A DNA stretch of 64,000 nt from a virus. Below, in pieces: positions 4,270 through 28,394 of this stretch. The stretch's first letter is position 1; every line of letters begins with the position of its first letter. Location of the stretch: positions 28,114-92,113 of the IMG/VR virus record IMGVR_UViG_3300027836_000009. One strand, given 5' to 3'. The position numbers and the translations under genes were made by a program. The notes beneath the pieces are model-generated. The model ran no database searches and was not told the origin of the DNA. It worked only from the letters and a program-made list of their open reading frames with translations.

Positions 4270-6564
4270 ATGGCTACAGGCACGAATGCACAAGCAACCA
4301 ACCCGCCATCTCCTCCCTATCTGATAGAGATTGTTGGTCCATCTGCTTCCGGTTTACAAGTAAATTACTTAACTGAACCACCTTTTATTAATCAAGAAAC
4401 ACCTGAGGAAGAACCTCAAGAAGATGATGTGCCAGTTCCTGAAGGCTCAACAGCAGAAACTTCATTATCAAGTAGTACAGGAACAAGTCCAGAAAGTGGA
4501 ACAAGTGGTTCAACTGGAGCAGGAGCTCCTGTGGAGGACCCTGCAGCTTCAACAAAAATACCTGCATTTTTAAATAAGTCAGAAGCCGAAGTTAGGTCAA
4601 CATATCCTACGGGAACTGTTTATCCTGAAGCAGCAGGAACTGGTGGTACTGCAACTATCGATACAACAACTGGAGATGATACAGGCAATTCAGCTACGCT
4701 AGATGGTGACGGAGAAGTGCCTCTTGACCCAAGATTAATTTATCTTGTATCCGAACTTGATAATTCAGTTATCTATTCATTTTCATCAAAGGATTCGGTA
4801 ATGGCACCACTATCTGACGGATTTGTTGTTAAAGATCCTAAAGATCCAAACACTGTTATAAGCGCAAATGATCCTAGATATACAGCAGATGATGCAAAAG
4901 GTTTAACCGAATTTTACGGCGTTCCTTCCATAATGAACTACAATGCTTACATTAACATTCAAGCAGCTGGAGGTAAAAACGGTAATAAGTTTTTAATTGA
5001 CCGTGAAAATCAACCTAAGTTTTATGAATTTAGCGGAGGCGGTATTCAAAACGCGGAAACACCAGGCACAAACGATATCACAGTAACGTCATTAGTTAAT
5101 TGGGCACAACAAGATAGGAATCAAAAGTTCCCATATAAGTATCAAGATTTTGTATATCTTAAATGGTGGAAGAAAATTCCACTTAACTATATGATTACTT
5201 TAAGAAGATACCCTGCACCAACAATTGACTCTGTAGGATCTGCTGAAGAAGCAAAAGGACAAGTTTCTAAAGATAAGCTATTACCTGTAGCAACAGCAAT
5301 AACATTTTTAGGTGAAGACACAGGTAATAAAATATCAACGATTCTTGGTCCTATTGAAGCAGGCTTAAGATGGAAAGATGTTAAAGCAGATGTTTGGGAA
5401 GTTTCTTTTAACGGTTCTAAAGCATCAGCTGACTCACCAGCACCAGGATTAGCTAAAGTATTAGGTTTAATTAATGGTGGACCAGGCGGAGCAAATCCAC
5501 AAGTTGATAACGGAACACCGCTTGACCCATATAATAATGGGCCTTACTCAAATAAAGTTCTTGGTCCTGTTACAGTTATTGACCAAGTTCAAGCTCGTGA
5601 TCGTGGTGTTAATTTCAAACATGAACTAAGTCTTATATTTGAATATTCAGCAAGATCTATTGGTGGTATTAATACGAAAGCTGCAATGTTGGATATAATC
5701 GGTAACTTAATGATACTTACGTATAATGAAGCTCAATTTTGGGGTGGTATGAACCGATTCATGCCTCAAGGCCAAGGCGGGGATCTTGACCCATTCTTAG
5801 GTGGCCCTGCTGGTCGTTCTGCTTGGCTAAACGGTAATCCTGAAGGATTCTTTAAAGCAGTAGGAGATCAGTTTACAAAAGCTTTTGATACATTAGGTGA
5901 TGTCTTTAATAAATTCTTTGAAGATCCTATTGGAGGACTGAAGGAGCTTGCGGGTAAAGGTATGCAAACTTACATGAAGTTAAACACAACTGCAGCTAAA
6001 GGACAAATGCAAGGTATTCACTCATTATTAACTGGAGCACCAGTTGGTGAATGGCACGTTACGGTAGGTAACCCAATGAATCCAATGATGATGATTGGTA
6101 ACTTAATATGCACAGGAATTAAAATTGAATTTAATGATGAACTTGGCCCTGATGACTTCCCAACTGAATTAAAAGCAACAATCTCACTTGACCATGGTAT
6201 GGCTCGAGACAGATCAGGAATTGAGTCAATGTTTAACCGCGGTCAAGGTCGTTTATATTCATTACCTAAAGGTTACGAAGAATCTCTTTCATCGGTTAAT
6301 ATGACTGCAGTTGATAAAACAACAGGCAAAGACTACGGAGCTAATCCTAGTGAAGTTGAAGTAACAAAAAGTAGTACGCCTGGCACAAGTAATTCAAATG
6401 GCAGACCGAAAAGTAATGCAAGTAGGAGAAGCCCTTCAAGTGGTGACCCAGGGATTATTGATGGAATATTTGGTTACTATAAGCAATCGTTTGTTCCTCG
6501 CGTAAAAAGTACTTCATCTGCAATTTATAGTCACGGTGTTAAATTCGTTGCAAGCAAAACTTAA
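4270..6564 (+). CDS. Putative baseplate/tail-tube initiator protein (gp48/gp54-like C-terminal domain) with a low-complexity acidic N-terminus
   Basis: First gene of the baseplate cluster; C-terminal WHVTVGNP...IGNLICTGIKIEF...FPTELKATISL fits a tube-fold beta pattern. Confidence 0.45.
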   Translation: MATGTNAQATNPPSPPYLIEIVGPSASGLQVNYLTEPPFINQETPEEEPQEDDVPVPEGSTAETSLSSSTGTSPESGTSGSTGAGAPVEDPAASTKIPAFLNKSEAEVRSTYPTGTVYPEAAGTGGTATIDTTTGDDTGNSATLDGDGEVPLDPRLIYLVSELDNSVIYSFSSKDSVMAPLSDGFVVKDPKDPNTVISANDPRYTADDAKGLTEFYGVPSIMNYNAYINIQAAGGKNGNKFLIDRENQPKFYEFSGGGIQNAETPGTNDITVTSLVNWAQQDRNQKFPYKYQDFVYLKWWKKIPLNYMITLRRYPAPTIDSVGSAEEAKGQVSKDKLLPVATAITFLGEDTGNKISTILGPIEAGLRWKDVKADVWEVSFNGSKASADSPAPGLAKVLGLINGGPGGANPQVDNGTPLDPYNNGPYSNKVLGPVTVIDQVQARDRGVNFKHELSLIFEYSARSIGGINTKAAMLDIIGNLMILTYNEAQFWGGMNRFMPQGQGGDLDPFLGGPAGRSAWLNGNPEGFFKAVGDQFTKAFDTLGDVFNKFFEDPIGGLKELAGKGMQTYMKLNTTAAKGQMQGIHSLLTGAPVGEWHVTVGNPMNPMMMIGNLICTGIKIEFNDELGPDDFPTELKATISLDHGMARDRSGIESMFNRGQGRLYSLPKGYEESLSSVNMTAVDKTTGKDYGANPSEVEVTKSSTPGTSNSNGRPKSNASRRSPSSGDPGIIDGIFGYYKQSFVPRVKSTSSAIYSHGVKFVASKT

Positions 6565-6579
6565 AATTAATCTCTATAT

Positions 6580-7197
6580 ATGTTACCATTTTTATATACA
6601 CAAGATACTAAAAAAGAAATAACTCACCCACAAACAGGTGTTAAATATGTTGATCTTTTAGAAAAAGATATTGTTTACGGTGATACAAATAATGGGCCAC
6701 AAGGAGTTGCTTATTATCTTATCACCGCAGATACTGCAATGCGACCAGACTTAATATCAAAAAGCATGTATGGGAATTTTGACCAAGTTGAAAAAATGTT
6801 AAAATTTAACGGCATATCAAATCCTTTAAGTCTTGATGAAGGCGACATATTAATACAATGGGATATCTTTTCATTAGAACGTAATATGAGAAGTCGTAAT
6901 AATGAAGGGGAAGCTAAAATGGATGTAAGAAAACAATACATCACACCTGAAAAGAAATCAAAAATTGATCCTGCTTTACAAGAATTTAATAAAAGACTTA
7001 CAGCTAAGAAAATTCCTGATACTGCGTTACCGCCTAATTACGCAAACTTTGGGGAAAAAGAAATTGAACTACGAAACGGAACAATGGTTTTTGGCGCTAA
7101 TGTAAGTAAAAGTAGTAATGGTGCTGCTGGAAACGAACCTTTAGCAAGAACTGAATATATTAAAAATTTGGTGAATAACCGAAATAATAACTTATAA
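6580..7197 (+). CDS. gp53: Baseplate wedge protein, LysM-like (T4 gp53-like)
   Basis: Y-x-I...RPDLISKSMYG...LKFNGISNPLSLDEGDILI is a gp53/LysM pattern; position before hub and spike genes. Confidence 0.7.
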   Translation: MLPFLYTQDTKKEITHPQTGVKYVDLLEKDIVYGDTNNGPQGVAYYLITADTAMRPDLISKSMYGNFDQVEKMLKFNGISNPLSLDEGDILIQWDIFSLERNMRSRNNEGEAKMDVRKQYITPEKKSKIDPALQEFNKRLTAKKIPDTALPPNYANFGEKEIELRNGTMVFGANVSKSSNGAAGNEPLARTEYIKNLVNNRNNNL

Positions 7198-7199
7198 AT

Positions 7200-8705
7200 A
7201 TGGCAAATGATAAATCAGTCATAAGATCTCTATTTGGTCCAACTATAAAATTGGATGATATGGTATTAGAAGATTTATCCACAGGTACGTCTGCTGAAGT
7301 TGATGCTAAAGGTGGAAAAAGCGGAAGACAATACCAAAATACATTAGGAACAGACTATCCTTTTATTATTATAAATAGTTACGTATTTAATGTTGGCGAA
7401 ATTATTGACTTTGAAATTGATGCAGATGGCTTTTTGCCTAGTATTGACTTAACAGTATCAATGTCTAATACAGCTGGCTTTAAAACAACAAAATTTCCAA
7501 AAGATGGGGATATCATATCTGTTTTTATTAGAGCAAAGAATGATGCGTTTAAACCGATTCGTAATGATTATTTGATAACATATGTTGATAGTGGGCCTGG
7601 TAGTTCAGAAGGCCGAGGTTCAACAATAACATTAAGAGGAAGTCTTTTTATACCTCACATGGACGATGAAGTTATTAAATCATTTGAAGGTACTTCAGTT
7701 GATGTACTGCAAAAAATTTGTAAAGAACTGAAGCTAGGATTCGCAACAAACGAAGATACTACCGACGATTCACAAATTTGGATATGTCCAGGTGACACTC
7801 TAAGGAACACAATTACAAGTATTGTAGATCATGCTTACAAAGATGATAAAAGCTTTTTTAAATGCTTTATTGATGTTTTTTATCATTTAAACTTTGTTAA
7901 TGTTAATACTCAAGTTGCTAGCGAAGGCAAAATGACTGCAGCCATACTTGACATTGTTTTTATGAAAGACGATAAGCCAGATCTTGCTTTAGAAAAATCT
8001 TCACAACAACAAGTTAAGAAATTCTTATGTGATATGGATAACTTTAAAGATACGAATATGTTTATTGAAACATACACAGTACAAAATAATAGTTCTGACA
8101 TATCAAAAAGATGGGGCTACAAAACGTTTGCCCAATTTTATGACCAACAAACACAGGATACTTGGAGCTTATATGTAGATCCTATTGTAACTGATGGCGC
8201 AAATGATACTGCAATCTTATTAAAAGGTAGACCGTATCCTAAAGCTGCTGATGGAACAGCTGAAGAAAAATATTGGGAAAAACAAAATAGATATGTTTGG
8301 CTAGGTGTGCAATCAAAAAATTCACATGATATGTATCTTTATTCAGAAATCTGGAATAGAAGAAATCTTGAAGAACTTGACAAATTATATATTGAAGCTC
8401 ACGTTACACGTTGGAACCCAAACATATATCGAGGTGAAAAGATTCCTATCTTATTACATTCGTTTGGTGATATCAACGATAGGGTTGCCAACAGAACTCC
8501 CAATGATGCAAACTTACCTACTAGTGAAACTGCTCCTACAGCAAATCAATTCTACAGTGGATATTATATGGTTGATGGTATCAAATTAAAGTACACAATT
8601 TCTAAAACTGATACATCAAGTAGTCCACCAGCTGAAGGAACACCAGGTATGACACAAGTTTTTTTATTACGTAGAAGAGAATGGCCAATTCCTGCTACCG
8701 GTTAA
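7200..8705 (+). CDS. Putative baseplate hub protein (gp27/late-control-D-like)
   Basis: Lies between the LysM wedge and spike genes; motifs SFEGTSVDVLQKICKELKL, FIDVFYHLNFVNV and FYSGYYMVDGIK. Confidence 0.55.
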   Translation: MANDKSVIRSLFGPTIKLDDMVLEDLSTGTSAEVDAKGGKSGRQYQNTLGTDYPFIIINSYVFNVGEIIDFEIDADGFLPSIDLTVSMSNTAGFKTTKFPKDGDIISVFIRAKNDAFKPIRNDYLITYVDSGPGSSEGRGSTITLRGSLFIPHMDDEVIKSFEGTSVDVLQKICKELKLGFATNEDTTDDSQIWICPGDTLRNTITSIVDHAYKDDKSFFKCFIDVFYHLNFVNVNTQVASEGKMTAAILDIVFMKDDKPDLALEKSSQQQVKKFLCDMDNFKDTNMFIETYTVQNNSSDISKRWGYKTFAQFYDQQTQDTWSLYVDPIVTDGANDTAILLKGRPYPKAADGTAEEKYWEKQNRYVWLGVQSKNSHDMYLYSEIWNRRNLEELDKLYIEAHVTRWNPNIYRGEKIPILLHSFGDINDRVANRTPNDANLPTSETAPTANQFYSGYYMVDGIKLKYTISKTDTSSSPPAEGTPGMTQVFLLRRREWPIPATG

Positions 8706-8710
8706 AAATG

Positions 8711-8718
8711 AATATATA
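8711..8718 (+). promoter_or_regulatory. Putative late promoter box RATATATA
   Basis: aatatata only 4 nt upstream of ATG 8723. Confidence 0.45.
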
Positions 8719-8722
8719 AATT

Positions 8723-10858
8723 ATGCAATATACAGATAAACTAACAAAAGGTTTTTTAAACGGTAATGGCTTTCTAACTCAAGACGCGCGTTCACAAGGC
8801 GTTGGTAGTGGTATAAGATATGATATTGAAGATCCTACTTATTTAGGATTTTATTGGCACATAGTGCCAAACACTGTTAAAGATCCACTTAATTATGATT
8901 TAGATTATTTGCCTCAAGGATTATTTTTACCTGAGGATCATCCTGATTCAGCTATAGATTATTTAAAAAGAACTGGTGAATATTACCGCGCCAATATGAT
9001 GCGTGAATTTTCTGAAGGTTTTAAAACATTATTACGAGATCAACCTTGGGCTTGGGACAAAGTATCTGGGCTTGGTGAAATTTCAAAAATAGATCCAAAA
9101 CAAAACTTTAGAGGTAAAGAGAAAAAAATAATTTTTGAAGGCAACGAAACAATTTCTATGCGTTTAACTTATCTTTTGGATCTTTATCGCAAAGCTGCGT
9201 TTGACCCAATTTACATGAGGTGGAAATTGCCTGAAACTCAAAGACTTTTTGAAATGCGAGTTGTTGTTGCTGAAATCCGAACTTTAGGTAATGGATTTGG
9301 TGGAATTAATGAGCCAGCAACTTTTATAGATTTTATTTTTGAAGAATGTGAATTTACAGCTATTGAAGATGGCTTTGAACACATTGATGAATTAACCAAT
9401 TACCCAGGTGAATCTCCTAGGGTTAAATTTGGTATAAAAGTTGGTCGTATTCGTGAAAGCAATCATTATGGTTTATTTGGTGCTCTTTTAGCTGATACAT
9501 TTCAACCTTGGATGAATGGTAAAGGTTTTGGTTCAGCTGCTTTTAATGAATTAACACGAGCAGTTAACCCAACTGGTGAAGCAATTAATTTAGCAGGTAC
9601 TATATTACAAGCACTTAGATCACCAGATGGTATAAATGATTACTTAACTCCTGATAGCATAAGATCTGATAGAGAACAAAGGTTTGCTGCAGGCAGCGAT
9701 TCTCGTATTAGGCCAGACGGAACGTTTAAATGGTCAGAAGTTGGTGAAATATTAAAAGGTATTGATGTTGCGACAGAAGGAATTAATATTGGTTTAAGAG
9801 AAGCACCTAATAATGAATCCGAGCAACCATTAGGTAATAATAATCCTGAAGAGCCACAGAAAAATACGGATCCTACAGATTTAGGAAAGGGGGATTTAAC
9901 AACAGTAGGGAAGCCAATAGGAAAAGGCGATTTACAAGTACAAAAAAGTCAGCAAGAATCTTTTTTAGGTAGGGCTATTCGTAATTACATAGACCAACAA
10001 ATCAATGCAGCTAAACTAGGAAACGTTTATGGTTTTTCTTTAGCAAACATAAGTGCTCAATTAGCGCTTGCTGCTCAAGATCCACTTTATGCTGCACAAC
10101 AGCTTATACAAAAACTTTCAAAGCCTAAGCCGCCTGGAACTTTAGGTAACATAGGAATAAGTAAAACGCAAACAAACTTATTACAAATATTTGCTTCAAC
10201 ATTATCAAATGCAAATGCTGAATATTCAGCCGCAGCTAAAAAAGCAAAGGCTTCACAAATATTAACTGGTAAGCCTGGAACTGAAACGTTAGCAAACGCA
10301 ATTGACCCTTCTGGAAACCCAGGAAAAGCTTTTGACGCGCCTAAGCCTTCAAGTTCATTGATAAACCCAATTGATAAATTATTATTAGGTGGTAGTTCAA
10401 ATTTAGTAGGTAATCCTGGGAAAGAAATAATTTCAGGTTCACCTTCATCAATACAAGGATCGTTAGGAAAAGAACCTTTAATGATCCCACCAAAAAGTAC
10501 AGGCGATGATAAAATAAAACTTGAAGGGCCACAAGTTAATCTTGTAGGTGATCCAGGAAAAACTGAGTTATTAGGAAACAGTTTATCATCAAGTGCTGAA
10601 TCAGCGGTTGAACTTAGCGGACCAAATGTAAGTATAAGCGGTAAACTTGATAAAGAAATTCTTGAAGGCGAAGGTTCTTTTTCTGGTGATTCATTAGGAC
10701 AAGAAAAACTTACAGGTGAAGGATCTTTATCTGGTGATTCGTTAGGTCAAGAACAACTTAAAGCGCCACAATCAGGTCCTGCCGAAAAACCTGGAGCTGA
10801 AGAACTTAAAGGACCAGTTATTAAAAATGAGAAATTAGGTAATATAGGATTATCATGA
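8723..10858 (+). CDS. Structural protein (baseplate/tail region) with C-terminal Gly/Pro/Lys repeats
   Basis: 711 aa within the baseplate cluster; globular N-terminal half and repetitive C-terminal third. Confidence 0.55.
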   Translation: MQYTDKLTKGFLNGNGFLTQDARSQGVGSGIRYDIEDPTYLGFYWHIVPNTVKDPLNYDLDYLPQGLFLPEDHPDSAIDYLKRTGEYYRANMMREFSEGFKTLLRDQPWAWDKVSGLGEISKIDPKQNFRGKEKKIIFEGNETISMRLTYLLDLYRKAAFDPIYMRWKLPETQRLFEMRVVVAEIRTLGNGFGGINEPATFIDFIFEECEFTAIEDGFEHIDELTNYPGESPRVKFGIKVGRIRESNHYGLFGALLADTFQPWMNGKGFGSAAFNELTRAVNPTGEAINLAGTILQALRSPDGINDYLTPDSIRSDREQRFAAGSDSRIRPDGTFKWSEVGEILKGIDVATEGINIGLREAPNNESEQPLGNNNPEEPQKNTDPTDLGKGDLTTVGKPIGKGDLQVQKSQQESFLGRAIRNYIDQQINAAKLGNVYGFSLANISAQLALAAQDPLYAAQQLIQKLSKPKPPGTLGNIGISKTQTNLLQIFASTLSNANAEYSAAAKKAKASQILTGKPGTETLANAIDPSGNPGKAFDAPKPSSSLINPIDKLLLGGSSNLVGNPGKEIISGSPSSIQGSLGKEPLMIPPKSTGDDKIKLEGPQVNLVGDPGKTELLGNSLSSSAESAVELSGPNVSISGKLDKEILEGEGSFSGDSLGQEKLTGEGSLSGDSLGQEQLKAPQSGPAEKPGAEELKGPVIKNEKLGNIGLS
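10661..10759 (+). repeat. 48-nt in-frame tandem duplication
   Basis: Encodes LEGEGSFSGDSLGQEK and LTGEGSLSGDSLGQEQ; DNA copies share gaagg-tcttt-tctggtgattc-ttagg-caagaa. Confidence 0.8.
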
Positions 10859-11595
10859 GAGGATTATCAAAAGAAGTTTTAAAAGCATCATATTTTATTG
10901 GAAAAATAGTTGATGCAGACGATCCCGATAAGGAAGGGAAAGCTAAGATCCGTGTGTTTGGTTTATTTGACGATTTAGAAGATGACAAGCTTCCTTGGTA
11001 TCAGCCATTTAATCGTCAAATGTTTTCAGGCGATGGCGGGTTTGCTGATATATCAATTCCAAAGAAAGATGTGTTTGTACAAGTCAGATTTTCTGAAGGT
11101 AATGTTTATTCAGGCGAATATGCGTCAATCCAAAATTTTAGCGAAGCTGTTAAAAAAGATATTTCTGATACATATCTAAATTCGCATGTCCTTGCATATG
11201 ATACTGAAGAAGAATTAAAAGTTTATTATACACCAGGCAAAGGTTTGGTTATAACTTTAAAAAGTTCTTTAATTAATATTGCACCAGATTCAAGTATCGT
11301 AATTGAACACAAAGATACTAAAAGTTCAATTTATTTAGTAGGCGATGAAATACAAATATCATCAGAAAACACTGTTAACGTTACAACAAAAAATGTTGTT
11401 ATAGATCATAGTGAAACTGTTGAACTTGGTGCTGGAGCTAGTGAACGACTTGTTCTTGGTGATTCATTTAAAAGTTTTTTTAATTCACACGTACATATTG
11501 GAAACTTAGGTGCTCCAACAACACCACCTACTATGCCAATGTTAGATGTATTATTAAGCGGCAAAGCTAGTCAACCCGTAGTTAAAACAGTATAA
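10855..11595 (+). CDS. gp5: Baseplate central spike (gp5/gpV-like OB fold, beta-helix and HxH tip)
   Basis: GKIVDADDPDKEGKAKIRVFG OB-fold motif; beta-strand repeats; C-terminal NSHVHIG HxH motif. Confidence 0.85.
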   Translation: MRGLSKEVLKASYFIGKIVDADDPDKEGKAKIRVFGLFDDLEDDKLPWYQPFNRQMFSGDGGFADISIPKKDVFVQVRFSEGNVYSGEYASIQNFSEAVKKDISDTYLNSHVLAYDTEEELKVYYTPGKGLVITLKSSLINIAPDSSIVIEHKDTKSSIYLVGDEIQISSENTVNVTTKNVVIDHSETVELGAGASERLVLGDSFKSFFNSHVHIGNLGAPTTPPTMPMLDVLLSGKASQPVVKTV

Positions 11596-11611
11596 ACCAA
11601 ATATTAAAAAT

Positions 11612-12178
11612 ATGTTAGTACCAGAAGTATTAGAACAACAATTAAAGAAAGCTTTCGAAGATCTTCAGCCTACAATAGAATCTGAACTGAACACTCATTT
11701 TTCTGCAAAAATGACAGGTCACACAGCGCTAGGTGTTAATGAAGATCTTGACATGGGTGGAATTGTAGAAACTGAAAGTGTTAATAGCATTTACACAGTT
11801 CAAGAAAAAACTGATAAGTGGGCTATTGAAAATCCGGCAGGAGAAATTAATTCAACAATATTACGAGCAGTATATAAAGATAAGCTATGGACTGAAGTTT
11901 CAAAAAACTGGGCAAAAAGTTTATCTGAACATATCTCGAAAGATATCACAATGACAATGTCAAAAGAATTAGCTCCTGCATTAACAGAAATTATAACTGA
12001 CTATTTAAAATCTGCAACGATATCAGTAATTATACCAGCACTCGCGATAAACATCCCAAGCCCCACTGGACTTCCAATACCGAATCCATTACCATTGGAA
12101 CTTCTTCTTAGCCCAATCATACCAGACGCAATAGAAGCTTTATTGTTTAAGATTAATTCGTTTGGTGGAATAAAGTAA
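11612..12178 (+). CDS. Hypothetical protein downstream of the spike, probably baseplate-associated
   Basis: 188 aa; helical N-terminus and Pro-rich hydrophobic C-terminus. Confidence 0.6.
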   Translation: MLVPEVLEQQLKKAFEDLQPTIESELNTHFSAKMTGHTALGVNEDLDMGGIVETESVNSIYTVQEKTDKWAIENPAGEINSTILRAVYKDKLWTEVSKNWAKSLSEHISKDITMTMSKELAPALTEIITDYLKSATISVIIPALAINIPSPTGLPIPNPLPLELLLSPIIPDAIEALLFKINSFGGIK

Positions 12179-12196
12179 TTAGTTATCTTAGGGTAT

Positions 12197-12204
12197 GATA
12201 TATA
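12197..12204 (+). promoter_or_regulatory. Putative late promoter box GATATATA
   Basis: gatatata 19 nt upstream of ATG 12224. Confidence 0.5.
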
Positions 12205-12223
12205 CCTTAACAAAAATAAAAAT

Positions 12224-13420
12224 ATGATCATTCAAAAAACATTAGAAGAAGCGTCTTGGGAAGCAATAATGCAACAAGACAAGAAGACTCCCAACCCGGA
12301 GATCTTGGAGAAGTACGGAGTAAAAGTTTTTAACAATCAGCCTTATGCTTTAGAGTATTACGAAAAGGTGTTTTTAGGTTCGGATCCTGAAAGTAAAGAA
12401 CCAATTATTGGGGAATCTCGTAGAATCTTAACTATCAATTCAGTTAACGATAAAGATATGTTAGTTACATTAAGTGGATTTGTTGAAGCCTCAATTGATA
12501 TTAGAGGTGAAAAACATTTCTGTTCTTTAATGAATACTACGCCAGCTGATTTATTAGAGTGGTTAAAAGAAACTGAAAACAGAGAATCGTTTGTTGCTAG
12601 CGGACATACCGTTATTGTTGAAATGATTAAGCCGTATGTTAAAGCTTCAATTTCAAAAGGACATTCATTAAAAATGAAGTCTGAATTCTTTGGGGAAATT
12701 CGTAAACCGTCTGCGGCATATTACGGAAAAATCAAAGAAAAGAACGGAGGAGGATTTATTATTAACGTACAAGGAATTGACGGATTCTTACCTGGGTCAT
12801 TAGCTGCAACAAATATCGTTCGTGATTTTGACTCAATGTTAGGAAAAGAAATTCCAGTAATGGTTGAAGATTACTTAAAAGAAAGTGACACATTTGTTTT
12901 TTCTTATAAGAAATATATTAGTACTGTGATGAACAGTAAAATTAATGAACTTGATTTAGACAAAAAATACGCAGGTACAGTAACTGGAAGTGCGAAGTAT
13001 GGTGTCTTTGTTGAATTTGATGAACTTTTTACAGGTTTAATTCATACAAGCAAAATGACTCCGGAATTGCATAACAAATTTGTTAAAGGAACATTTAAAT
13101 CTGGAGACAAAGTTGAATTTTGGATAAAAGAAATTACTGACGATAAGAAATTGATCTTAACTGATGAAGATCCTTCAATTCGTCGTAATCAATTAGAAGA
13201 ATTCAAAACTGCAAGCCTAGGAAAAATTGTTGAAGCTGAAGTTGTTTCAGTTCAACCGTTTGGTGTACTATTTAAAGTTCAAAAAGATATTGTTGGTTTA
13301 GTTTCCCAAAAAGAAATCAAGACCAAGAAAAAGAACTACTCAATTGGTGACAAAGTAATGGTTACAATTGATAGAGTTCACAACGATAAAATTTTCCTTT
13401 CACTGCCAAATGAAGATTAA
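12224..13420 (+). CDS. Multi-S1-domain RNA-binding protein (ribosomal protein bS1-like)
   Basis: Three S1 repeats: GKIKEKNGGGFIINVQGIDGFLPGS, GTVTGSAKYGVFVEFDELFTGLIHTSKM and AEVVSVQPFGVLFKVQKDIVGLV. Confidence 0.85.
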   Translation: MIIQKTLEEASWEAIMQQDKKTPNPEILEKYGVKVFNNQPYALEYYEKVFLGSDPESKEPIIGESRRILTINSVNDKDMLVTLSGFVEASIDIRGEKHFCSLMNTTPADLLEWLKETENRESFVASGHTVIVEMIKPYVKASISKGHSLKMKSEFFGEIRKPSAAYYGKIKEKNGGGFIINVQGIDGFLPGSLAATNIVRDFDSMLGKEIPVMVEDYLKESDTFVFSYKKYISTVMNSKINELDLDKKYAGTVTGSAKYGVFVEFDELFTGLIHTSKMTPELHNKFVKGTFKSGDKVEFWIKEITDDKKLILTDEDPSIRRNQLEEFKTASLGKIVEAEVVSVQPFGVLFKVQKDIVGLVSQKEIKTKKKNYSIGDKVMVTIDRVHNDKIFLSLPNED

Positions 13421-14825
13421 AAAGAACTACTCAAAAGCTGAAGTACTTGACGGAATTAAAATAGGATTCGAGTTTGAATTCTATTCCTCACTTGATGTTT
13501 TTGAAACTGCAAAACAATTAGCTAAATATACTAAGAAGAGAGTGGTAGTTCCACTTTCTCTTAGTGATATTTCAAATCCTAAACCACTTTACCATTCACC
13601 AGTTACACCAACTGCTGATATCTTTAAACTTGAACCTGATTACTCAGGAGGTAAAAAGATGTGTGAACTTGTAACAGGACCTATAAAATATGCAGATGCC
13701 AGAAACATCTTAATTAAAGTTTTTGAGTGGATTCAATCAAATGGTTATACAAATGAAAGATGTTCAATTCACGTTAACATGAGTATTGACGGTGATGTTG
13801 TTCCAACTTTATACACAATTCAAAACATAAACATACCAAAGTTTATTCTTTCGTTTGATGAAAACAAAATTTTTGACAAATTTCCTGAACGTAAAGATAG
13901 TGTTTATGCAAGAAGTATAAAACAAATCAGACCTAACCGAGTTCTTTTTTATTCTCCAACGCTTGAAGATTTTAGTCGTTCAACACTTAATCTTCCGTCT
14001 GACGAAAAATACTACGGTGTTAACTTTTTGAAAGCTGAGAAAGGATATCTTGAATATCGTTACTTAGGTGGGAAAGATTATCAAAAGAAAAGCAAAGTTA
14101 TTCTTGACATAATTGATTACCAAGCTTTACATTTATTTGACACACTTAACTTTACAGGTTTTAGTGATAAAGAAAGAGCTGACTTTAAAAAGATGATAGA
14201 TCTTGACAAAAAGATTTATGAAGGCTTTAGTAAATATTCGGAATTTAGAAAGAAATTTCCTGATATTAAAGTTGGTGTTGATATGGTTGACGATCCACAA
14301 GTTCTTGAAGCTGTTTGGGGTAATTTGAGAGAGAAATTATATGAATTAATCGTTACAGGTAAAATGTCAAAAGGTGAGTTTAATTACGATACTGAATTAG
14401 GACGTTACCAATTGAAGAAAACAAAACTTAAAAACTGTAATCTTTCTGATTTTGAATTTATTGATTGTGAAATAGAAGGTATTATGACAAGATCTTGGTT
14501 TTACGAATGTAAAATTAAAAACAGTCGTATAACAGAAAGTGAGTTTTTAAAAGCAAACACAATTGACTTTTCAAAAATTGCTGATAGTGAATTACATGTA
14601 GGTAATACTTGTAATGACTGTTACATTGAGAATAAAAAAATGAGTATCAACTGTGAAGTTAATGCTGGTGTTATTCGTAACGGCGAAATTGGTAAATTAG
14701 CAAAAATATCAAAAGATACACTTATCGTTGAAGGTCAGCCTGCTGAATCTGGAAACGCTGGTAGTAGTTCTTATAGTGATCCTAATCAAGATAAGAATAA
14801 TAAGAAAAAAATAAAAGAAAAATAA
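13410..14825 (+). CDS. Putative amidoligase (COOH-NH2 ligase type 2) with a C-terminal beta-helix/pentapeptide-like region
   Basis: IGFEFEF, ELVT, CSIHVN and LEYRYLGG motifs; C-terminal repeats such as LKNCNL, FIDCEI, FYECKI and IKNSRI. Start revised to ATG 13410. Confidence 0.7.
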   Translation: MKIKKNYSKAEVLDGIKIGFEFEFYSSLDVFETAKQLAKYTKKRVVVPLSLSDISNPKPLYHSPVTPTADIFKLEPDYSGGKKMCELVTGPIKYADARNILIKVFEWIQSNGYTNERCSIHVNMSIDGDVVPTLYTIQNINIPKFILSFDENKIFDKFPERKDSVYARSIKQIRPNRVLFYSPTLEDFSRSTLNLPSDEKYYGVNFLKAEKGYLEYRYLGGKDYQKKSKVILDIIDYQALHLFDTLNFTGFSDKERADFKKMIDLDKKIYEGFSKYSEFRKKFPDIKVGVDMVDDPQVLEAVWGNLREKLYELIVTGKMSKGEFNYDTELGRYQLKKTKLKNCNLSDFEFIDCEIEGIMTRSWFYECKIKNSRITESEFLKANTIDFSKIADSELHVGNTCNDCYIENKKMSINCEVNAGVIRNGEIGKLAKISKDTLIVEGQPAESGNAGSSSYSDPNQDKNNKKKIKEK

Positions 14826-14827
14826 TC

Positions 14828-15196
14828 ATGAAGTACATTAAAAAATTTGAAGATTATGTTGCTTCTTATAAAGACAGCAATCTTCAAAATGATGACGAGG
14901 AACAATTCAAAAAAGCTGCAAAAGTAACAACTAACGAAAGTGGTTTTGTTATTGAATATAATGATGATAAAGTTACAATTGAAAGCGGTCTTGATGAAGG
15001 TAATGAAGAAGTTCCTGTAGATGAAATTGCTGAAGCACTAAAAAAACTTGGCGCTGAAACTGTTACTTTTGAAAATGAAGATGGTGAAACTGAATCTCAT
15101 CCAGTTAATGAGTTTTTAAGAAAATTGAATCCGCTTCGTTGGAAATTATCAAAGAAACATAGGTCAATTGCTGGTGCAATAAAAGACGACGAATAA
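14828..15196 (+). CDS. Small acidic putative head-internal protein
   Basis: N-terminus MKYIKKFEDY (CTS-like) with TNE/LDE/VNE motifs. Confidence 0.55.
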   Translation: MKYIKKFEDYVASYKDSNLQNDDEEQFKKAAKVTTNESGFVIEYNDDKVTIESGLDEGNEEVPVDEIAEALKKLGAETVTFENEDGETESHPVNEFLRKLNPLRWKLSKKHRSIAGAIKDDE

Positions 15197-15211
15197 AATT
15201 ATCATAATGAC

Positions 15212-15943
15212 ATGACTAGAGATGAATTAATTGAAATGGTGAACGCTGAGGTTACAGGAAGTGGTTCCTTGCCATATTCAGTTCCTCCTAGGGAATCTGA
15301 ACGTATCGTCAATCAAGCTCTTAATTGGTTTTATGCAAATTACGGTCCTTCTGTTGAAACTCAATATTATGTAATTGAGAAAGCTTGGTTTACCAGTGAT
15401 GAGTTTAAAAAGACAAGAAGTATTCTCTTGCCTGAATGTGTTATGTCAATTACCGAATGTAAAGAAATTAGTGGAGGCGGTCGTTTAGGAACAATTGACA
15501 AAGACTTTTCTGACAACCGTTTACTTGCAGCTGAGATTTATCTTGCACCTTTTGCTTCTGATGATTTAGTTTTAAGAACTGCTCAATATTCATATTGGGA
15601 TTTAACTAAAGCGTTCATTCTTGAAAAGGTACGTTTTGATTTTAATAGAAATACTCATCGTTTAAAAATCACAGGTCGTAACCCAAAGAAAAATGTTTTC
15701 ATTGACACGCTTGTAAAAATTGAAGAAAACAAATTATATGATGATTGGTTTTTTCAAAGATGGGTTACTGCTCAAACAAAAATATCTCTAGCAAATATTA
15801 TTGGATTCTTTCAATTCAACTTGCCTGGCGGAATTGCTGTTAATGCTGACGGTTTAAGAGATGATGGTAAAGAAGAGATCGAACAAATTAAACAAAGAAT
15901 AGATGACGAGAACACACCAGATTGGTTCTACATCTTCCATTAA
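15212..15943 (+). CDS. gp13: Neck protein (T4 gp13-like)
   Basis: FDFNRNTHRLKI and FNLPGGIAVNADGLRDDGKEEIEQI match the gp13 C-terminal pattern. Confidence 0.75.
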   Translation: MTRDELIEMVNAEVTGSGSLPYSVPPRESERIVNQALNWFYANYGPSVETQYYVIEKAWFTSDEFKKTRSILLPECVMSITECKEISGGGRLGTIDKDFSDNRLLAAEIYLAPFASDDLVLRTAQYSYWDLTKAFILEKVRFDFNRNTHRLKITGRNPKKNVFIDTLVKIEENKLYDDWFFQRWVTAQTKISLANIIGFFQFNLPGGIAVNADGLRDDGKEEIEQIKQRIDDENTPDWFYIFH

Positions 15944-15949
15944 TAAATT

Positions 15950-16312
15950 ATGTTAAAAGAAATTTATTGCCGAAACGAAAACGATCCTAAATATGTTAAC
16001 ACCATATTGGAAACGACAGATGCGATAGAAGCACTCTTAACAAAATTACGCATGATCCTCTTTACTGCAAGAGGTGAAGTCCTTGGATATCCTAATTTAG
16101 GCCTAGATCTTGATTCTATGTTGTTTGAGTTAAATTACTCAGGATTCCAAATCCAACGAGACTTTTATGCGCAAATTGCGTCATATTGTCCTGAAGCTAA
16201 AAATTATAAAATAAATATTGAAGTCAATTTCGTACCAGGAAGTGTTAGGGATATCTGCTACATAGATATATACATAGACGGTACAAAGTATCTAGGTGTC
16301 GTCGCAAAATAA
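15950..16312 (+). CDS. gp25: Baseplate wedge subunit (gp25-like)
   Basis: 120 aa; LRMILFTARGEVLGYPNLG motif; directly upstream of the gp6-like gene. Confidence 0.75.
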   Translation: MLKEIYCRNENDPKYVNTILETTDAIEALLTKLRMILFTARGEVLGYPNLGLDLDSMLFELNYSGFQIQRDFYAQIASYCPEAKNYKINIEVNFVPGSVRDICYIDIYIDGTKYLGVVAK

Positions 16313-16322
16313 GACATCAGAA

Positions 16323-18020
16323 ATGGCATTAGAAATTTTTAAGTATAACAGGATTCGTTTTGAGCAACTTTATCAAGACTCTAAAGATTACCTCACAAAT
16401 AAATTTTTACAAGTTGGGGATGTGTTCTCTCCAGCCAGTGCATACGGTCAGCTTTTAGGTGTAATAATTGATTTAGGTAAACTTATCTTTTATTATGTTG
16501 AAGACAGTATTACTGAATTAAACATCTACACGGCAACTCGTGATTCATCAATCCGAAGTCTTGCCAGAATCGCTGGGCATAACCCAACGCGAGCAATTGC
16601 TGCATCAGGTACAGTTATGATATCATATAACGGTAACCCAATTGATATGTATGGCAATACAGCAATCATCCCTAATTACACTAGAATTATTAATAATGCT
16701 ACAGGTTTAACATATACAATTGTTGCCGATAGTGAAGATATAAGAGTTCAACTTAGTGGTTCAACTACAATTGAAACTAAATTACTTCAAGGAATCATTG
16801 AAGCTCAAACTGTTACAGGAACAGGATTTGCATTACAATCATATAACATAAATGTAAAAAGAGGATCACAAGTTGATAACTTCTTTGTGTATGTTTATGT
16901 AAATGGGGAAAAGTGGCAAACATACGATTCTATTTATGATATGCCATATGAAAAGAAAGGCGTTGTTGTAAAAACAGGTATTAATGCAGGTATTGACCTT
17001 TACTTTGGTAACGGTTTCTTTGGATCAATTCCTGATTTAGGTGCTTCTATTAGAGTTGAGTACTTATCAACAAGTGGAAACGCTGGAAACATTCTTGAAG
17101 GCGAAACTACACAATTTACATTTGTTGATGATGTTTACGATTTAGCAGGTAACGTTATTCCTATTAATGATGCTGTTAAATTAAACATTGGTAAACCTAT
17201 CATTTTTGGATCTGATGCTGAACCTATTTACTTAACAAGAATTCTTGCGCCAAAAACAAGTAGATCATACGTATTAGCAAATGCTGATTCTTACGTTTAC
17301 TTTTTAGAAAAATTTAATATCTTTAGTGTAATTGATGCTTTTAATACATTTGATGATAATGACTTAAGTGACGATAATGTTGTTTACTTATTTTTAATAC
17401 CAGACGTAAATAAAAGAAAGCCATCAAACGCTGATTACTTTACTGTTCCTATTAAGTTATTTACGCTATCTGAAGCAGAGAAAAATAAAGTATATGATTT
17501 TATTGAACAAAGCGGGCAAAAGATAATCACAACAGTTGTTAAAATTGTTGACCCAATCATAAAGAAATACGTTCTTAATATAAACATTACTGCATATGAA
17601 GGGTATAGTAAAGATAATGTAAGACAACAAATCATTTCTAAATGTAGCGATTATTTCTTAAAGAATCGTCGTAGAGATCGTATACCAAAATCTGATCTTA
17701 TTTCAATCATTGAAAACATACAAGGTGTTGACTCAGTTAACTTGTGGTTTGTTGGTGAAGAAAATGAATACATTAAATCAGACCCAGCAAATGCTTCTTT
17801 ACCTGACGTAGGAATTGATACATTTGGTGACATTGTTATTAATCGTGGTGAGTATGCACTTATAAGAGGGGGTTGGAATGATCGTAATGGATATGTTTAT
17901 TATGATACTTCATCAGCAACTAAGCCTGGAAGTATTAATATTGCATTTGGTAAAGATTCGTCAAACTCAATTAATATGGAATTACATCGTATAAATGTAG
18001 ATAGCATAAAAACATCTTAA
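16323..18020 (+). CDS. gp6: Baseplate wedge subunit (gp6/baseplate J-like)
   Basis: ATRDSSIRSLARIAGHNP, LYFGNGFFGSIP, IRVEYLSTSGNAGN and GSDAEP motifs. Start revised from 16296; a GATATATA box lies at 16265. Confidence 0.8.
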   Translation: MALEIFKYNRIRFEQLYQDSKDYLTNKFLQVGDVFSPASAYGQLLGVIIDLGKLIFYYVEDSITELNIYTATRDSSIRSLARIAGHNPTRAIAASGTVMISYNGNPIDMYGNTAIIPNYTRIINNATGLTYTIVADSEDIRVQLSGSTTIETKLLQGIIEAQTVTGTGFALQSYNINVKRGSQVDNFFVYVYVNGEKWQTYDSIYDMPYEKKGVVVKTGINAGIDLYFGNGFFGSIPDLGASIRVEYLSTSGNAGNILEGETTQFTFVDDVYDLAGNVIPINDAVKLNIGKPIIFGSDAEPIYLTRILAPKTSRSYVLANADSYVYFLEKFNIFSVIDAFNTFDDNDLSDDNVVYLFLIPDVNKRKPSNADYFTVPIKLFTLSEAEKNKVYDFIEQSGQKIITTVVKIVDPIIKKYVLNINITAYEGYSKDNVRQQIISKCSDYFLKNRRRDRIPKSDLISIIENIQGVDSVNLWFVGEENEYIKSDPANASLPDVGIDTFGDIVINRGEYALIRGGWNDRNGYVYYDTSSATKPGSINIAFGKDSSNSINMELHRINVDSIKTS

Positions 18021-24747: not shown

Positions 24748-26146
24748 TAGATTAATAATTAATGTGCCTGACGCTTTATTAAAAGCTCAAGACCAATTTT
24801 TAAGAACACCTTCTATTGAAGATGGTAATAGTGATGATGTGCTACAAGGAAAGATATACACATCTGAGTTAACAATTAATGATAACTATAGTGTAAATTA
24901 TACATCAAGTATAACAAAAGTTGACTTTCAAAATATAAAGTCAGGAAATTTTTACATTGTTAACATACATTGTTCATATCTTGCGCAACAAGCAAGCGTA
25001 GCAGCAACAAATCCTGGACTATACGGGTCTGAATTAATAAAAACAGGTGAGCCGTTCACAATTATAAGTTCAACTGGTGATTATGTAAGAGGTGTTGTTT
25101 CGGAAATTGTTGAAATTATACCTACGCAATTACAATCTAATTATCCTGAAGTTTGGGAGTATAATTTTGAACTTTCATGTATTATTGCGCAAGGCAATCC
25201 TAAAGAAATCTCGCCAGGCCAGTGGTTTATTTGGAAAAGACAAATGTATCAAGATCATTCAACATTTAATGAAGCATATCCGCCAGTTAATTTAACTGCG
25301 TCTTTTAATTCAACGACAAAAGAAATCTTCTTTTATTGGGATGATGTTAATCAATCAAGTAGAACTTACAGGCTACAGCTAAGAGACCCATCAGATAGTA
25401 TTACCCCTTACATATATAAAACACAAGTTCATGGCCCGCTATCAAATAGCGATACTTCGTTAAAAGCTTTTGTTAATAATGGAAATGTACAAACAATTAA
25501 AATAGTTGAGCCGGGCGTAGGTTTAAATTCCAATCGTTCTTTAATAATTAAAGGAGTTGGAACAGGCGCAGTTTGGGCAACTCGTCTTGATAATAAAGGA
25601 GCATTAATGATAAACACGTTTGATGTTTGTGCCATATCTGGTTCTGCAAATCCTTCATACCTTGAACTTGGTTTATTTGCAAGAAAGACACGTCCTGAAT
25701 ATGGCGGCACATATCCGCTACCTACAATTAATTCATACATTGAAGGTTTACCGCCTTTAGGCACAACAACAAATTTTTATGTGCATTCTATATTATATTC
25801 AGGCAGACAATTTGGAATTGAGGTTCGCGATGCTGATACAGGATTGGGGGTAGACATTACACAAGAATGGTATGATGAAGTTCTTAAATCTGAAATCAAA
25901 ACACATGATGGTGTATATAAAATACAAAACGGATCAGGATATAATTACAGAACATTGGCTAGTGTAAAAACTATACCTAATGGCGTTCGTGCTTATTGGG
26001 ATCCCGTTTTTGGAGTACCTACCAATTCAGCTCCGTTTAATTATTCAACAAATAAACTCTGGGCTTGGTCAGTATCCGCAACATATGATGAGATAAATAA
26101 ACTATACACAGAATGGACAGCAGAAGAATACATAAACCTAGCATAA
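24734..26146 (+). CDS. Structural protein (baseplate/fibre) with FN3-like segments
   Basis: PPVNLTAS...FYWDD and WAWSVSA...EW motifs; TIKIVEPGVG repeat. Start revised to ATG 24734. Confidence 0.55.
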   Translation: MAKTNRLIINVPDALLKAQDQFLRTPSIEDGNSDDVLQGKIYTSELTINDNYSVNYTSSITKVDFQNIKSGNFYIVNIHCSYLAQQASVAATNPGLYGSELIKTGEPFTIISSTGDYVRGVVSEIVEIIPTQLQSNYPEVWEYNFELSCIIAQGNPKEISPGQWFIWKRQMYQDHSTFNEAYPPVNLTASFNSTTKEIFFYWDDVNQSSRTYRLQLRDPSDSITPYIYKTQVHGPLSNSDTSLKAFVNNGNVQTIKIVEPGVGLNSNRSLIIKGVGTGAVWATRLDNKGALMINTFDVCAISGSANPSYLELGLFARKTRPEYGGTYPLPTINSYIEGLPPLGTTTNFYVHSILYSGRQFGIEVRDADTGLGVDITQEWYDEVLKSEIKTHDGVYKIQNGSGYNYRTLASVKTIPNGVRAYWDPVFGVPTNSAPFNYSTNKLWAWSVSATYDEINKLYTEWTAEEYINLA

Positions 26147-26700
26147 ACGAAATTTCAATAAAAGGGAAACGATCTGAAAAGCTTGCTATATTTGACTTAG
26201 ATGATACGCTCATCATTTCACAAGCGAAGATACAGGTCATAGATCCTAAATCGGGGAGGGTTCTTAAATCCCTTACACCGGAACAATTTAACCATTATGT
26301 ACATGATCACAATCACGCATTATCATTTACTGAATTTGAGGATGCGGAAATTTTGAGAAGATCTACATTTATAACAGAGATATTGGAAAAGTTATTAAAT
26401 TTTTACACCAGCGGAGTACATGTCTCAATTGTAACAGCAAGATCTAATACAAAACTGATTCGTGATTTTTTCTTAGAAAAAGGAATAAACATTCACCCGG
26501 ATTTGGTGTTTGCCGTAAATGATCCCAGGTATAATTTTAAAGGTAATGTTGCCGAAAAGAAAAAGCAAGCAATACACGGGCTCATAGAATACGGTTATAA
26601 AGATTTAGTTTTCTTTGACGACAACGATGACAATCTCCGATTAGCAAAAGAAATTGAAAAGGAGAAAGATGTCAAAGTTGAAACTGTCAAAGTTGGTTGA
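26113..26700 (+). CDS. HAD-superfamily phosphatase
   Basis: Motif I IFDLDDT, motif II IVTAR, motif III K, motif IV FFDDNDDN. Confidence 0.85.
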   Translation: MDSRRIHKPSINEISIKGKRSEKLAIFDLDDTLIISQAKIQVIDPKSGRVLKSLTPEQFNHYVHDHNHALSFTEFEDAEILRRSTFITEILEKLLNFYTSGVHVSIVTARSNTKLIRDFFLEKGINIHPDLVFAVNDPRYNFKGNVAEKKKQAIHGLIEYGYKDLVFFDDNDDNLRLAKEIEKEKDVKVETVKVG

Positions 26701-26740
26701 AATTATATAGGACGAGATCCTATGCAAAAAATAAAAGATT

Positions 26741-27529
26741 ATGGCAAGACCTAAAAATAAAGCCAAGACAGATGAATACTTTGATGAAGTATTTCCACTT
26801 GGATATACATCTTCATCACAAACATCAAACAAGTTTAATCTTGATAAGATTACGGTTGATTTGAAATGTAAAAATCCAAACCAAAAAACTTTTATTAACT
26901 TAATCAGTGATAACAAAATTACAATCGCTGCTGGCCCTGCAGGAACAGGGAAAACATATCTTGCTTGCGCACAAGCATTGAAAATGTTAAAGTCAGATCC
27001 AAAATTTAAAAGAATAATACTTGTAAAAAGTGTAACGGTTTTAGAAGGCGAAGAAATAGGATTCCTAAAAGGAGATATGAAAGAAAAAATGTATCCTTTT
27101 ACAATTTCTTTTCTTGATAACTTTCACAAACTTATTGGAGAAGGCATAACACAAATCATGCTTGACATGGGACTTATTCAAGTTCTACCATTAGCTTATA
27201 TTCGTGGTCGTTCAATTGACAACGCAATCATAATCGTTGACGAAGCTCAAAACATTACTAAAAAGAATATGAGGTCTACATTGACCCGTATCGGTACTGA
27301 TTCTATAATGATCATTACAGGTGATACTAAACAAATTGATATGAAGAATCATCAGATGTCTTCACTCGAATTGGTTGTTCACTTATTTGCCGATAAGCCT
27401 AATATAGGAGTATTGGAATTTGATAAAAATGATATCGTTAGGGATCCTATCGTTATGTTAATCGAACAAACTTTTGATGATTGGGAAGAATCCCAAACAA
27501 CTACACATCCTAAAAAGGATATTTCGTAA
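26741..27529 (+). CDS. phoH: PhoH-like ATPase
   Basis: GPAGTGKT Walker A, IGFLKG, LAYIRGRS, IIVDEAQN, TGDTKQID and DIVR. Confidence 0.95.
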   Translation: MARPKNKAKTDEYFDEVFPLGYTSSSQTSNKFNLDKITVDLKCKNPNQKTFINLISDNKITIAAGPAGTGKTYLACAQALKMLKSDPKFKRIILVKSVTVLEGEEIGFLKGDMKEKMYPFTISFLDNFHKLIGEGITQIMLDMGLIQVLPLAYIRGRSIDNAIIIVDEAQNITKKNMRSTLTRIGTDSIMIITGDTKQIDMKNHQMSSLELVVHLFADKPNIGVLEFDKNDIVRDPIVMLIEQTFDDWEESQTTTHPKKDIS

Positions 27530-27962
27530 TATAACCAATTTTTGAATTAAACCAATGTTCGCCGTATGAAACAAATAACTGTTCTTCGGCGGATATTGGT
27601 TTTATTGTTTTTATACCAATAAGATTAAGTTCGTAGTCAGCAATAAACTGACAATTATTATCATCTTTATGATTATACAGAGCCACCCATCCCATTGGGA
27701 ATCCACCGTCTGCTTGCCAGTTCACAGTGTATTGGTCAAGTTTTAAATCTCCGTTTGGAATTCCTTCAGCTTGACAAGACCAAATTGCTATTTCCATTAA
27801 CTGTCGTGGATAAACAACAACAGGAGCTATTTCAATAATAACTCCGTCGTTGATGTTTTCTTTTGTAAAAATCCCCCAGCCGCCTATTTGTGGAACTGAC
27901 TGAATTTCTAATCTCGAATCTATAAAAGGTTTATAATTCGAGTCCTGAAGATTTTTTTGCAT
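27510..27962 (-). CDS. SET-domain protein lysine methyltransferase
   Basis: GWGIFTKENI, YNHKDDNNC and KPISAEEQLFVSYG motifs. Confidence 0.85.
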   Translation of the reverse strand: MQKNLQDSNYKPFIDSRLEIQSVPQIGGWGIFTKENINDGVIIEIAPVVVYPRQLMEIAIWSCQAEGIPNGDLKLDQYTVNWQADGGFPMGWVALYNHKDDNNCQFIADYELNLIGIKTIKPISAEEQLFVSYGEHWFNSKIGYITKYPF

Positions 27963-28221: not shown

Positions 28222-28312
28222 TCTTTCTTTTCTTATGTTTCTACTGTTGTTTACTATCTTAGTCTACCTACTTCAATCTATCTATCCTTCCACCTGACTA
28301 ACCGTATAGTTT

Positions 28313-28376: not shown

Positions 28377-28394
28377 TTAAAATAAATTAAAATT

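Follow-up and report, generated by a model that had tools for sequence, protein, structure and literature searches.

The window analysed here is a stretch of 64,000 nucleotides of viral DNA (positions 28,114 to 92,113 of IMG/VR virus record IMGVR_UViG_3300027836_000009). It forms the final 64 kb of a 92-kb record whose CheckV completeness of 32% implies a jumbo phage of approximately 290 kb. Two adjacent genes within it are the subject of this study: the first encodes a relative of ribosomal protein bS1 (hereafter S1), and the second a protein with the fold of glutamine synthetase (GS) and other amide ligases (hereafter the ligase-like protein; Table 1). An earlier reading made from the letters alone (the sequence-only reading) had proposed that they constitute a two-gene system of translation and post-translational modification, with the ligase acting on S1, the ribosome or a virion target. 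Both genes are real, as is the 11-nt overlap between them, given that the TAA stop of S1 occupies 13418-13420 and the ligase-like gene begins with an ATG at 13410. The longest frame of the latter opens at a TTG (13368); the ATG (MKIKKNY...) was assigned as the start because the sequence MK[IVT]KK is common to the starts of 16/16 aligned homologues. The pair had also been placed correctly between spike and neck genes, with a gp5-like baseplate hub upstream and a T4 gp13-like neck gene downstream.

The S1 protein and its upstream region

S1 is a derivative of ribosomal protein bS1. The Pfam S1 family matched it in three stretches (E 7e-21), and the NCBIfam rpsA models were its top matches (E 1e-23 to 3e-26). 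When a profile of 13 homologues was compared with the Protein Data Bank (PDB), the best matches were bS1 chains in colinear alignment (E 7e-23 to 1e-22); residues 157-386 aligned with 116-351 of 8wi7_b, and residues 114-299 with 52-242 of E. coli S1, each as a single colinear hidden Markov model stretch. The AlphaFold2 (AF2) model (m2696b9696fa9; predicted local distance difference test score, pLDDT, 77.6) comprises N-terminal helices (residues 1-60) followed by four OB/S1 domains, D1 to D4, at residues 65-142, 166-227, 248-313 and 335-393; pLDDT is 37-74 over the N-terminus. The sequence-only reading was thus right in recognizing an S1 protein, but its three domains were an undercount. Foldseek returned as top match bS1 on the 30S subunit (9gut_B, E 1.4e-19, 380 columns), together with ribosome-bound D1-D2 chains (9guq_B, TMt 0.65) reported without residue ranges.

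Conservation is greatest in D2 and D3, as judged across 46 distant homologues. In domain 2, GidGflPGS aligned with GIEAFLPGS of bS1, and the signature GIDGFLPGSLAA was invariant in 13/13 clade sequences, with conservation of 90% or more among the 46 distant homologues. Domain 3 bears YGVFVEF...GLIHTSKM, the aromatic/His RNA-binding motif. The family numbers 393 homologues at E<1e-5, the best 120 of which are all approximately 350-425 aa in length. S1 of the window clade has an invariant acidic C-terminal tail (...LPNE-x), which is not conserved in homologues outside the clade.

A box of its own, GATATATA, had been attributed to S1. As a word, this box is not enriched in the window (4 sites against 3.9 expected), and its support comes instead from its position and its conservation in relatives: a (G/A)ATATATA box precedes the S1 ATG by approximately 15-25 nt in 12/12 clade relatives, while the other flanking sequence has diverged. 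All four GATATATA sites in the window are on the + strand; three lie 26-38 nt 5' of a start, and the fourth (16265) precedes a GTG by 31 nt and the ATG of the J gene described below by 57 nt. Leaders in the window are composed of 53% A and 9% G and hold Shine-Dalgarno-like words in 3/36 cases against a background of 12%, in agreement with the late mRNAs without Shine-Dalgarno sites of the sequence-only reading.

Contigs from the RNA libraries of four freshwater/sediment metatranscriptome runs, each belonging to another study, cover both the S1 and ligase-like genes, and those of three runs span the junction; this coverage amounts to a weak hint of expression, since carry-over of DNA is possible. 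Contigs from two studies (X20 and X8) start next to the GATATATA box, at 12200 and 12207. Such starts would fit initiation of a transcript at the box and provide a weak hint of it, as contigs cannot prove a transcript start. A search for terminators on the + strand between 11500 and 16400 found none, and co-transcription of S1 with the ligase-like gene is weakly indicated. Just 5' of the S1 box, at 12015-12112, a metatranscriptome contig of run X21 has 93 other letters replacing 96 nt; this strain-variable stretch lies at the 3' end of the gene preceding S1.

The ligase-like protein

The ligase-like protein is modelled as a GS-fold domain, a helical linker, a beta-helix and a disordered Lys-rich tail (Table 1). 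Its designation as an amidoligase stood at the level of the family and of the fold: the window protein by itself scored below the gathering threshold of Pfam Amidoligase_2 (PF12224; 18.7 of the required 22 bits, E 0.0017), but 15 of 44 family members matched this model (best E 7.1e-14), and hence the link to the superfamily holds despite the low score. Residues 7-249 superposed on GS in VIA (Z 9.0-9.5, rmsd 3.6-3.9 A), the match to human GS (2ojw_A) having a Z of 9.5 and an rmsd of 3.9 A over 175 residues, and those to other GS chains a Z of 8.2-9.0 and an rmsd of 3.5-3.6 A. Foldseek likewise matched the model to GS (E 7.5e-4), as well as to YbdK and MfpA. Confidence in the AF2 model is low at residues 165-201, where GS enzymes carry active-site loops.

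The extra C-terminal beta-helix described in the sequence-only reading was recovered at residues ~305-445 by AF2, VIA and the family profile. That profile matched MfpA (E 7.6e-6); in VIA, the helix matched NP275/276 (Z 7.6, rmsd 2.3 A), and left-handed helices with a Z of 9-10 at poor rmsd. The score against Pfam Pentapeptide_4 was 20 bits, the cut-off being 38.

Searches of NCBIfam and PHROGs returned no match for the ligase-like protein. Its family is large, with 917 representatives at a cut-off of E<1e-3, or 204 at E<1e-30; almost all are full length, and its nearest protein-atlas clusters are 97-100% viral. Among the papers searched, none described PF12224-type proteins in a neck or baseplate context. 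The E/H/R residues of the ligase site are conserved only in part of the family. The complete catalytic set (E21, E23, E75, D77, E86, H121, N123, E215 and R217) is invariant in 16/16 sequences of the window clade, and with all of its residues intact there, the protein may still form an amide bond in this clade, as far as its sequence can tell. A census of 133 full-length sequences (the window protein and 132 representatives) revealed a bimodal distribution, in which 83/133 keep 7-9 of the nine residues and 42/133 keep 0-3. Near-invariant in the live and dead groups alike are F24, K144, E151 (133/133), Y218, G220, G221, Y224, F279 and N325. The replacement of the catalytic residues in the dead group, coupled with the invariance of this other set, argues that the conserved role of the family is not catalysis on S1.

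Gene order among relatives and the roles of the two proteins

Synteny of the pair was found in many lineages, but it breaks down in others. The ligase-like gene directly follows S1 in 24 distinct close contigs (54-99% identity for S1 and 58-98% for the ligase-like protein). A survey of 18 junctions (16 close loci, L040 and LR756500) revealed the 11-nt overlap in 7, gaps of 14-19 nt in 5, gaps of 41-133 nt in 6, and gaps of ~0.7-1.3 kb in 2. The gap in one contig (L010:9174-9306) contains what resembles a terminator, a hairpin (gggacag...ctgtccc) with a T run after it, such that S1 and the ligase-like gene are probably separate transcription units there. In two others (L014:9165-9295 and L016:9165-9295), a gap of 131 nt holds the coding sequence of a very small, Cys-rich peptide (MAECPRCK...CSC...CEEC) resembling a zinc ribbon, for which there is no equivalent in the window.

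Two deeper lineages, L039/L040 and LR756500, keep the order of S1 followed by the ligase-like gene, with spacers. In LR756500 (L028:10931-11713), two adjacent 127-aa open reading frames (ORFs) on the opposite strand are inserted between the two genes, and these may be paralogous morons or homing-type inserts. A search for the subclade with a dead catalytic site returned 53 IMG/VR loci, 48 of them with enough upstream DNA, and S1 was found 39-2229 nt upstream of the ligase-like gene (median 92) in 45/48. All of the catalytic ligase residues are replaced in this clade, and the order S1, ligase-like, gp13-like, gp25-like and J is kept nevertheless; gene order is therefore independent of ligase chemistry. 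Homologues of 714-, 1215- and 2671-aa ORFs of the window also directly adjoin S1 in the dead-site clade. From these comparisons, the order of S1, ligase-like gene and neck gene is ancestral and well kept.

In four Mahaphage lineages of >630 kb (five records: LR756502, LR745206, LR756501/3 and LR756504), 49-442 kb separate S1 from a ligase-like gene whose catalytic site is intact. The ligase-like gene of these phages stays within 12 kb of baseplate/neck genes, and S1 adjoins homologues of the 1215-/2671-aa proteins or of a 181-aa ORF (55451-55996 in the window; weak tail-tube PHROG match); in LR745206 and LR756502, it is the 1215- and 2671-aa homologues that directly adjoin it. Among complete genomes, S1 occurs without the ligase-like gene in Lak-C1 (E 9e-64), and the ligase domain without S1 in Salicola SCTP-2 (E 3e-13). 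Three further loci (L041, L048 and L096) lack S1 upstream of the ligase-like gene. The gp13-like gene follows the ligase-like gene in nearly all lineages, and in L048 and LR756504 it is found beside the ligase-like gene where S1 is not, making it a slightly steadier neighbour than S1. Indeed, the ligase-like gene lies beside gp13-like/baseplate genes in every lineage examined save L096 and SCTP-2.

We give about an even chance to the reading that these are two late genes of one old block with different jobs, S1 being an RNA/translation factor and its neighbour a ligase-fold protein linked to the neck and baseplate. Transcribed from its own conserved late-type promoter box, S1 would most likely bind phage mRNAs at their A-rich leaders, in which Shine-Dalgarno sites are lacking, and pass them to host 30S subunits, either replacing host bS1 on the ribosome or acting alongside it. 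The bS1-type domains with their GFLPGS and aromatic/His motifs, the promoter box and the composition of the leaders are observed features; binding of S1 to the ribosome, and any effect on translation, we infer. The host would probably be a member of the Bacteroidota. The ligase-like protein is proposed to be, most likely, an assembly factor or virion-associated scaffold beside the gp13-like neck protein. Judging from the comparisons among relatives, the conserved role of its family appears tied to the neck/baseplate block, with catalysis not needed, and were the protein active in the window clade, a virion protein would be as likely a substrate as S1. At the same even odds, the two genes are adjacent and overlap by 11 nt owing to inherited gene order and co-transcription, and not as an enzyme and its substrate. 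The two-gene system of the sequence-only reading was only partly borne out, and its core of an obligate pair is not supported: the genes are unlinked in some relatives, a ground for refutation named in that reading that applies in part, each is found alone in a complete genome, the catalytic site is dead in a large clade, and the S1 tail is restricted to one clade.

A number of observations weigh against this reading of two separate jobs. Adjacency persists down to identities of 26-33% for the ligase-like protein and 35-43% for S1, which is long for a functionally untied pair of phage genes, and it extends over 45/48 dead-site loci, all 24 close contigs, L039/L040 and LR756500; the 11-nt overlap, moreover, recurs in 7/18 junctions. 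Invariance of the catalytic set at 59-87% identity argues for selection on activity within the window clade. With respect to S1, its scores of 81-92 bits are far short of the curated bS1 equivalog cut-offs, all of which lie at 368-918 bits (91.8/524 for NF004952, 83.8/577 for TIGR00717 and 81.2/368 for NF005208), and sequence comparison gave no alignment of its N-terminal ~110 residues (1-113) with bS1; docking to uS2 and the 30S subunit is thus presumptive. Any placement of S1 or the ligase-like protein inside or outside the virion is likewise a prediction.

The persistence of the gene order at very deep divergence, including in the dead-site clade with its median gap of 92 nt, would also be expected of a true functional pair. 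The ligase-fold protein would then serve as a non-catalytic adaptor or regulator on S1 or on the S1-loaded ribosome, and the clades with an intact site would in addition modify S1 or a ribosomal protein in the manner of RimK. Consistent with this alternative, the 11-nt overlap of the 7/18 junctions suits translational coupling, RNA-library contigs bridge the junction, and the LPNE-x tail is invariant in the window clade. We consider it rather unlikely, however, in view of the intact-site lineages in which the genes are 49-442 kb apart, the presence of S1 alone in Lak-C1 and of the ligase domain alone in SCTP-2, the three loci without S1 upstream, the hairpin between the genes in L010, the lack of conservation of the S1 C-terminus beyond the window clade, and the dispensability of catalysis in approximately a third of the ligase-like family. 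RimK is an ATP-grasp ligase that glutamylates ribosomal protein bS6, and it provides a precedent for the action of an amide ligase on the acidic C-terminus of a ribosomal protein, the mechanism implied by the sequence-only reading. In contrast to RimK, the fold here is that of GS; the acidic tail of S1 is confined to one clade, and other clades dispense with the ligase site. RimK-type tagging of LPNE-x as a general mechanism was rejected, the tail being confined to the window clade, and tagging of S1 by the ligase-like protein is unlikely. Co-folding of the two proteins gave scores of 0.01, 0.41 and 0.00 against a mark of 0.32, a result that weighs neither for nor against their binding.

Alternatively, the ligase-like protein of the window clade could be an active ATP-dependent amide ligase whose target is a neck or baseplate protein, tagged or cross-linked as assembly proceeds, with S1 being unrelated; the product could be a glutamylated protein, or an isopeptide bond as made by the GS-fold Pup ligase PafA. 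The catalytic fold of GS is present, the catalytic set is invariant in 16/16 clade members and in ~62% of family representatives, and the gene keeps its place next to gp13-like and baseplate genes with only the two exceptions given above. No partner from a small-molecule pathway was found, either: the glutamine amidotransferase (GATase) and gamma-glutamylcyclotransferase (GGCT) genes noted as absent in the sequence-only reading gave no Pfam or PHROG match among the genes at 4270-18020, and no match to GATase_4 (PF13230) or GGACT (PF06094) in the 92-kb record, which represents approximately a third of the genome. But position, length and the invariant non-catalytic residues are all the same in the dead-site clade, indicating that a non-enzymatic role is sufficient to retain the gene. 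In addition, no substrate motif was identified, and the region of the active-site loop is that of low AF2 confidence. This alternative, too, was considered rather unlikely.

A third possibility is that S1, though recruited from bS1, is not a translation factor but a structural or packaged protein of the neck region that binds nucleic acid; its expression along with the neck genes would then follow from its place in the particle or its action on the packaged DNA end. In every lineage, S1 is found among late/structural-type genes (hub, neck, or homologues of the 1215-/2671-aa proteins), it has a late-type promoter, and with its 393 homologues it belongs to the conserved core of the group. Nevertheless, the bS1-specific signatures and RNA-binding residues are kept, neither PHROGs nor any structural-protein family matched S1, and phage rpS1 has been reported to correlate with genomes lacking Shine-Dalgarno sites (PMC7162821), leaving this proposal with little credence. 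Equally doubtful is a three-gene unit of S1, ligase-fold and gp13-like proteins in which the ligase fold, alive or dead, serves as a non-catalytic adaptor holding ribosome-binding S1 at the neck/collar or site of assembly; if true, a translation factor would be carried into the next host, or late translation would be coupled to neck/tail assembly.

The surrounding genes and relation to known systems

Features of the locus are listed in Table 1.

Table 1. Coordinates of the S1 gene, the ligase-like gene and neighbouring features in the window.
Feature	Position	Strand	Basis or remark
gp5-like baseplate hub/spike gene	10855-11595	+	PHROG 37871 baseplate protein, E 3.8e-15; PHROG 430 hub subunit/tail lysozyme N-terminus, E 5e-10
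GATATATA late-promoter-like box	12197-12204	+	20 nt 5' of S1 ATG
bS1-like gene (S1)	12224-13420	+	398 aa; Pfam S1, E 7e-21
S1 domain D1	12416-12649	+	AF2 model
S1 domain D2	12719-12904	+	AF2 model
S1 domain D3	12965-13162	+	AF2 model
S1 domain D4	13226-13402	+	AF2 model
S1 stop/ligase-like start overlap	13410-13420	+	11 nt, direct sequence reading
Ligase-like gene	13410-14825	+	471 aa; GS-fold domain, linker, beta-helix, tail
GS-fold domain	13428-14156	+	AF2 model m40e27e5e9fad
Helical linker	14157-14321	+	AF2 model m40e27e5e9fad
Beta-helix	14322-14744	+	AF2 model m40e27e5e9fad
Disordered Lys-rich tail	14745-14822	+	AF2 model m40e27e5e9fad
Small acidic ORF	14828-15196	+	122 aa; poorly conserved, filler between ligase-like and neck genes
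T4 gp13-like neck gene	15212-15943	+	PHROG 211 head-tail adaptor, E 3.4e-13; PDB profile match T4 gp13, E 0.0017
gp25-like baseplate wedge gene	15950-16312	+	PHROG 43, 219, 6 and Pfam GPW_gp25, Baseplate_J, jointly with gp6/J-like gene
gp6/J-like baseplate wedge gene	~16296-18020	+	Jointly with gp25-like gene (PHROG 43, 219, 6; GPW_gp25, Baseplate_J)

In the window clade, the gp5-like hub gene marks the upstream limit of the block. The assignment of the gp13-like gene derives from alignment of only the C-terminal part of the long PHROG 211 profile and, in the case of T4 gp13, of residues 173-229 only. Homologues of the small acidic ORF were found in the two closest contigs only; its N-terminus (MKYIKKFEDYV) resembles T4-like capsid-targeting N-termini, e.g., MKHIKLYEDYINE.

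The window has a GC content of 33%, and nearly all of its genes are on the + strand. It was found in DNA runs of many lake and freshwater studies; blastn against GenBank phages gave no match for the region, and a tRNA scan of the window found none. Further downstream, at 30824-52258, lie four large ORFs of 714, 1215, 2671 and 2519 aa; the 1215-aa ORF matches PHROG 29329, of unknown function, and a Pfam search of these giant proteins gave no matches. Enzyme genes, including PNK-like, PhoH, 3'-5' exonuclease, RuvC-like, SSB, primase, exonuclease and helicase genes, occur among structural genes at 26113-29946 and 55451-62646, and with this interleaving, the genome is a mosaic and not one clean late operon.

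Phage S1 has been known since 2020 (PMC7162821). Huge phages with possible rpS1 genes were observed to rarely have Shine-Dalgarno sites (Al-Shayeb et al., 2020, PMC7162821), and the largest Mahaphages and Lak phages are predicted to infect Bacteroidetes (PMC7162821). The window S1 resembles these proteins in its multiple S1 domains, its setting without Shine-Dalgarno sites and the predicted hosts, and it has direct homologues in LR745206, LR756500-LR756504 and Lak phages (28-36% identity). A four-domain family of ~400 aa, and its place at the head of a ligase-like/neck/baseplate block, are not described in PMC7162821. Compared to cellular bS1, the window protein shares the colinear domains, GFLPGS of domain 2 and the Phe/His motif of domain 3, and bS1 is its best match by both sequence and fold; it differs in having only four domains, in scoring 4-10x under the curated cut-offs, and in its unaligned N-terminal 110 residues. 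In this regard, bS1 of E. coli has six domains, and four are present in the forms of mycobacteria and low-GC Gram-positive bacteria.

The ligase-like protein has in common with Amidoligase_2 and other GS-fold ligases (GS, YbdK/GCS2 and PafA) the GS-type fold and, within the window clade, Glu/Glu/Glu/Asp/Glu/His/Asn/Glu/Arg at the expected strands. Unlike these enzymes, its family is virus-specific, fused to a helical linker and beta-helix, and encoded in a neck/baseplate block without a GATase/GGCT partner, and a third of it is catalytically dead; phage COOH-NH2 ligase systems with such partner genes were reportedly described by Iyer et al. in 2009. The C-terminal beta-helix is shared with the pentapeptide-repeat proteins MfpA, Qnr and NP275/276, from which it differs by its Cys/Asn-rich repeats and its fusion to an enzyme fold, and nothing indicates DNA mimicry. 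Folyl-polyglutamate is said to occur in the T4 baseplate (gp28/gp29, attributed to Kozloff); a literature search found nothing on these reports, and they were not used as evidence.

The ligase-like family is large and virus-only. It retains its length, its beta-helix and its non-catalytic residues beside a neck gene although every catalytic residue has been lost in a third of its members, which has the look of an enzyme fold co-opted for virion structure or assembly. Not reading the pair as an enzyme-substrate system guards against over-reading of the same gene motif in other genomes. The S1 family, with its ~400 homologues, its own late promoter and hosts without Shine-Dalgarno sites, represents a clean candidate for phage-steered initiation in Bacteroidota-type translation.

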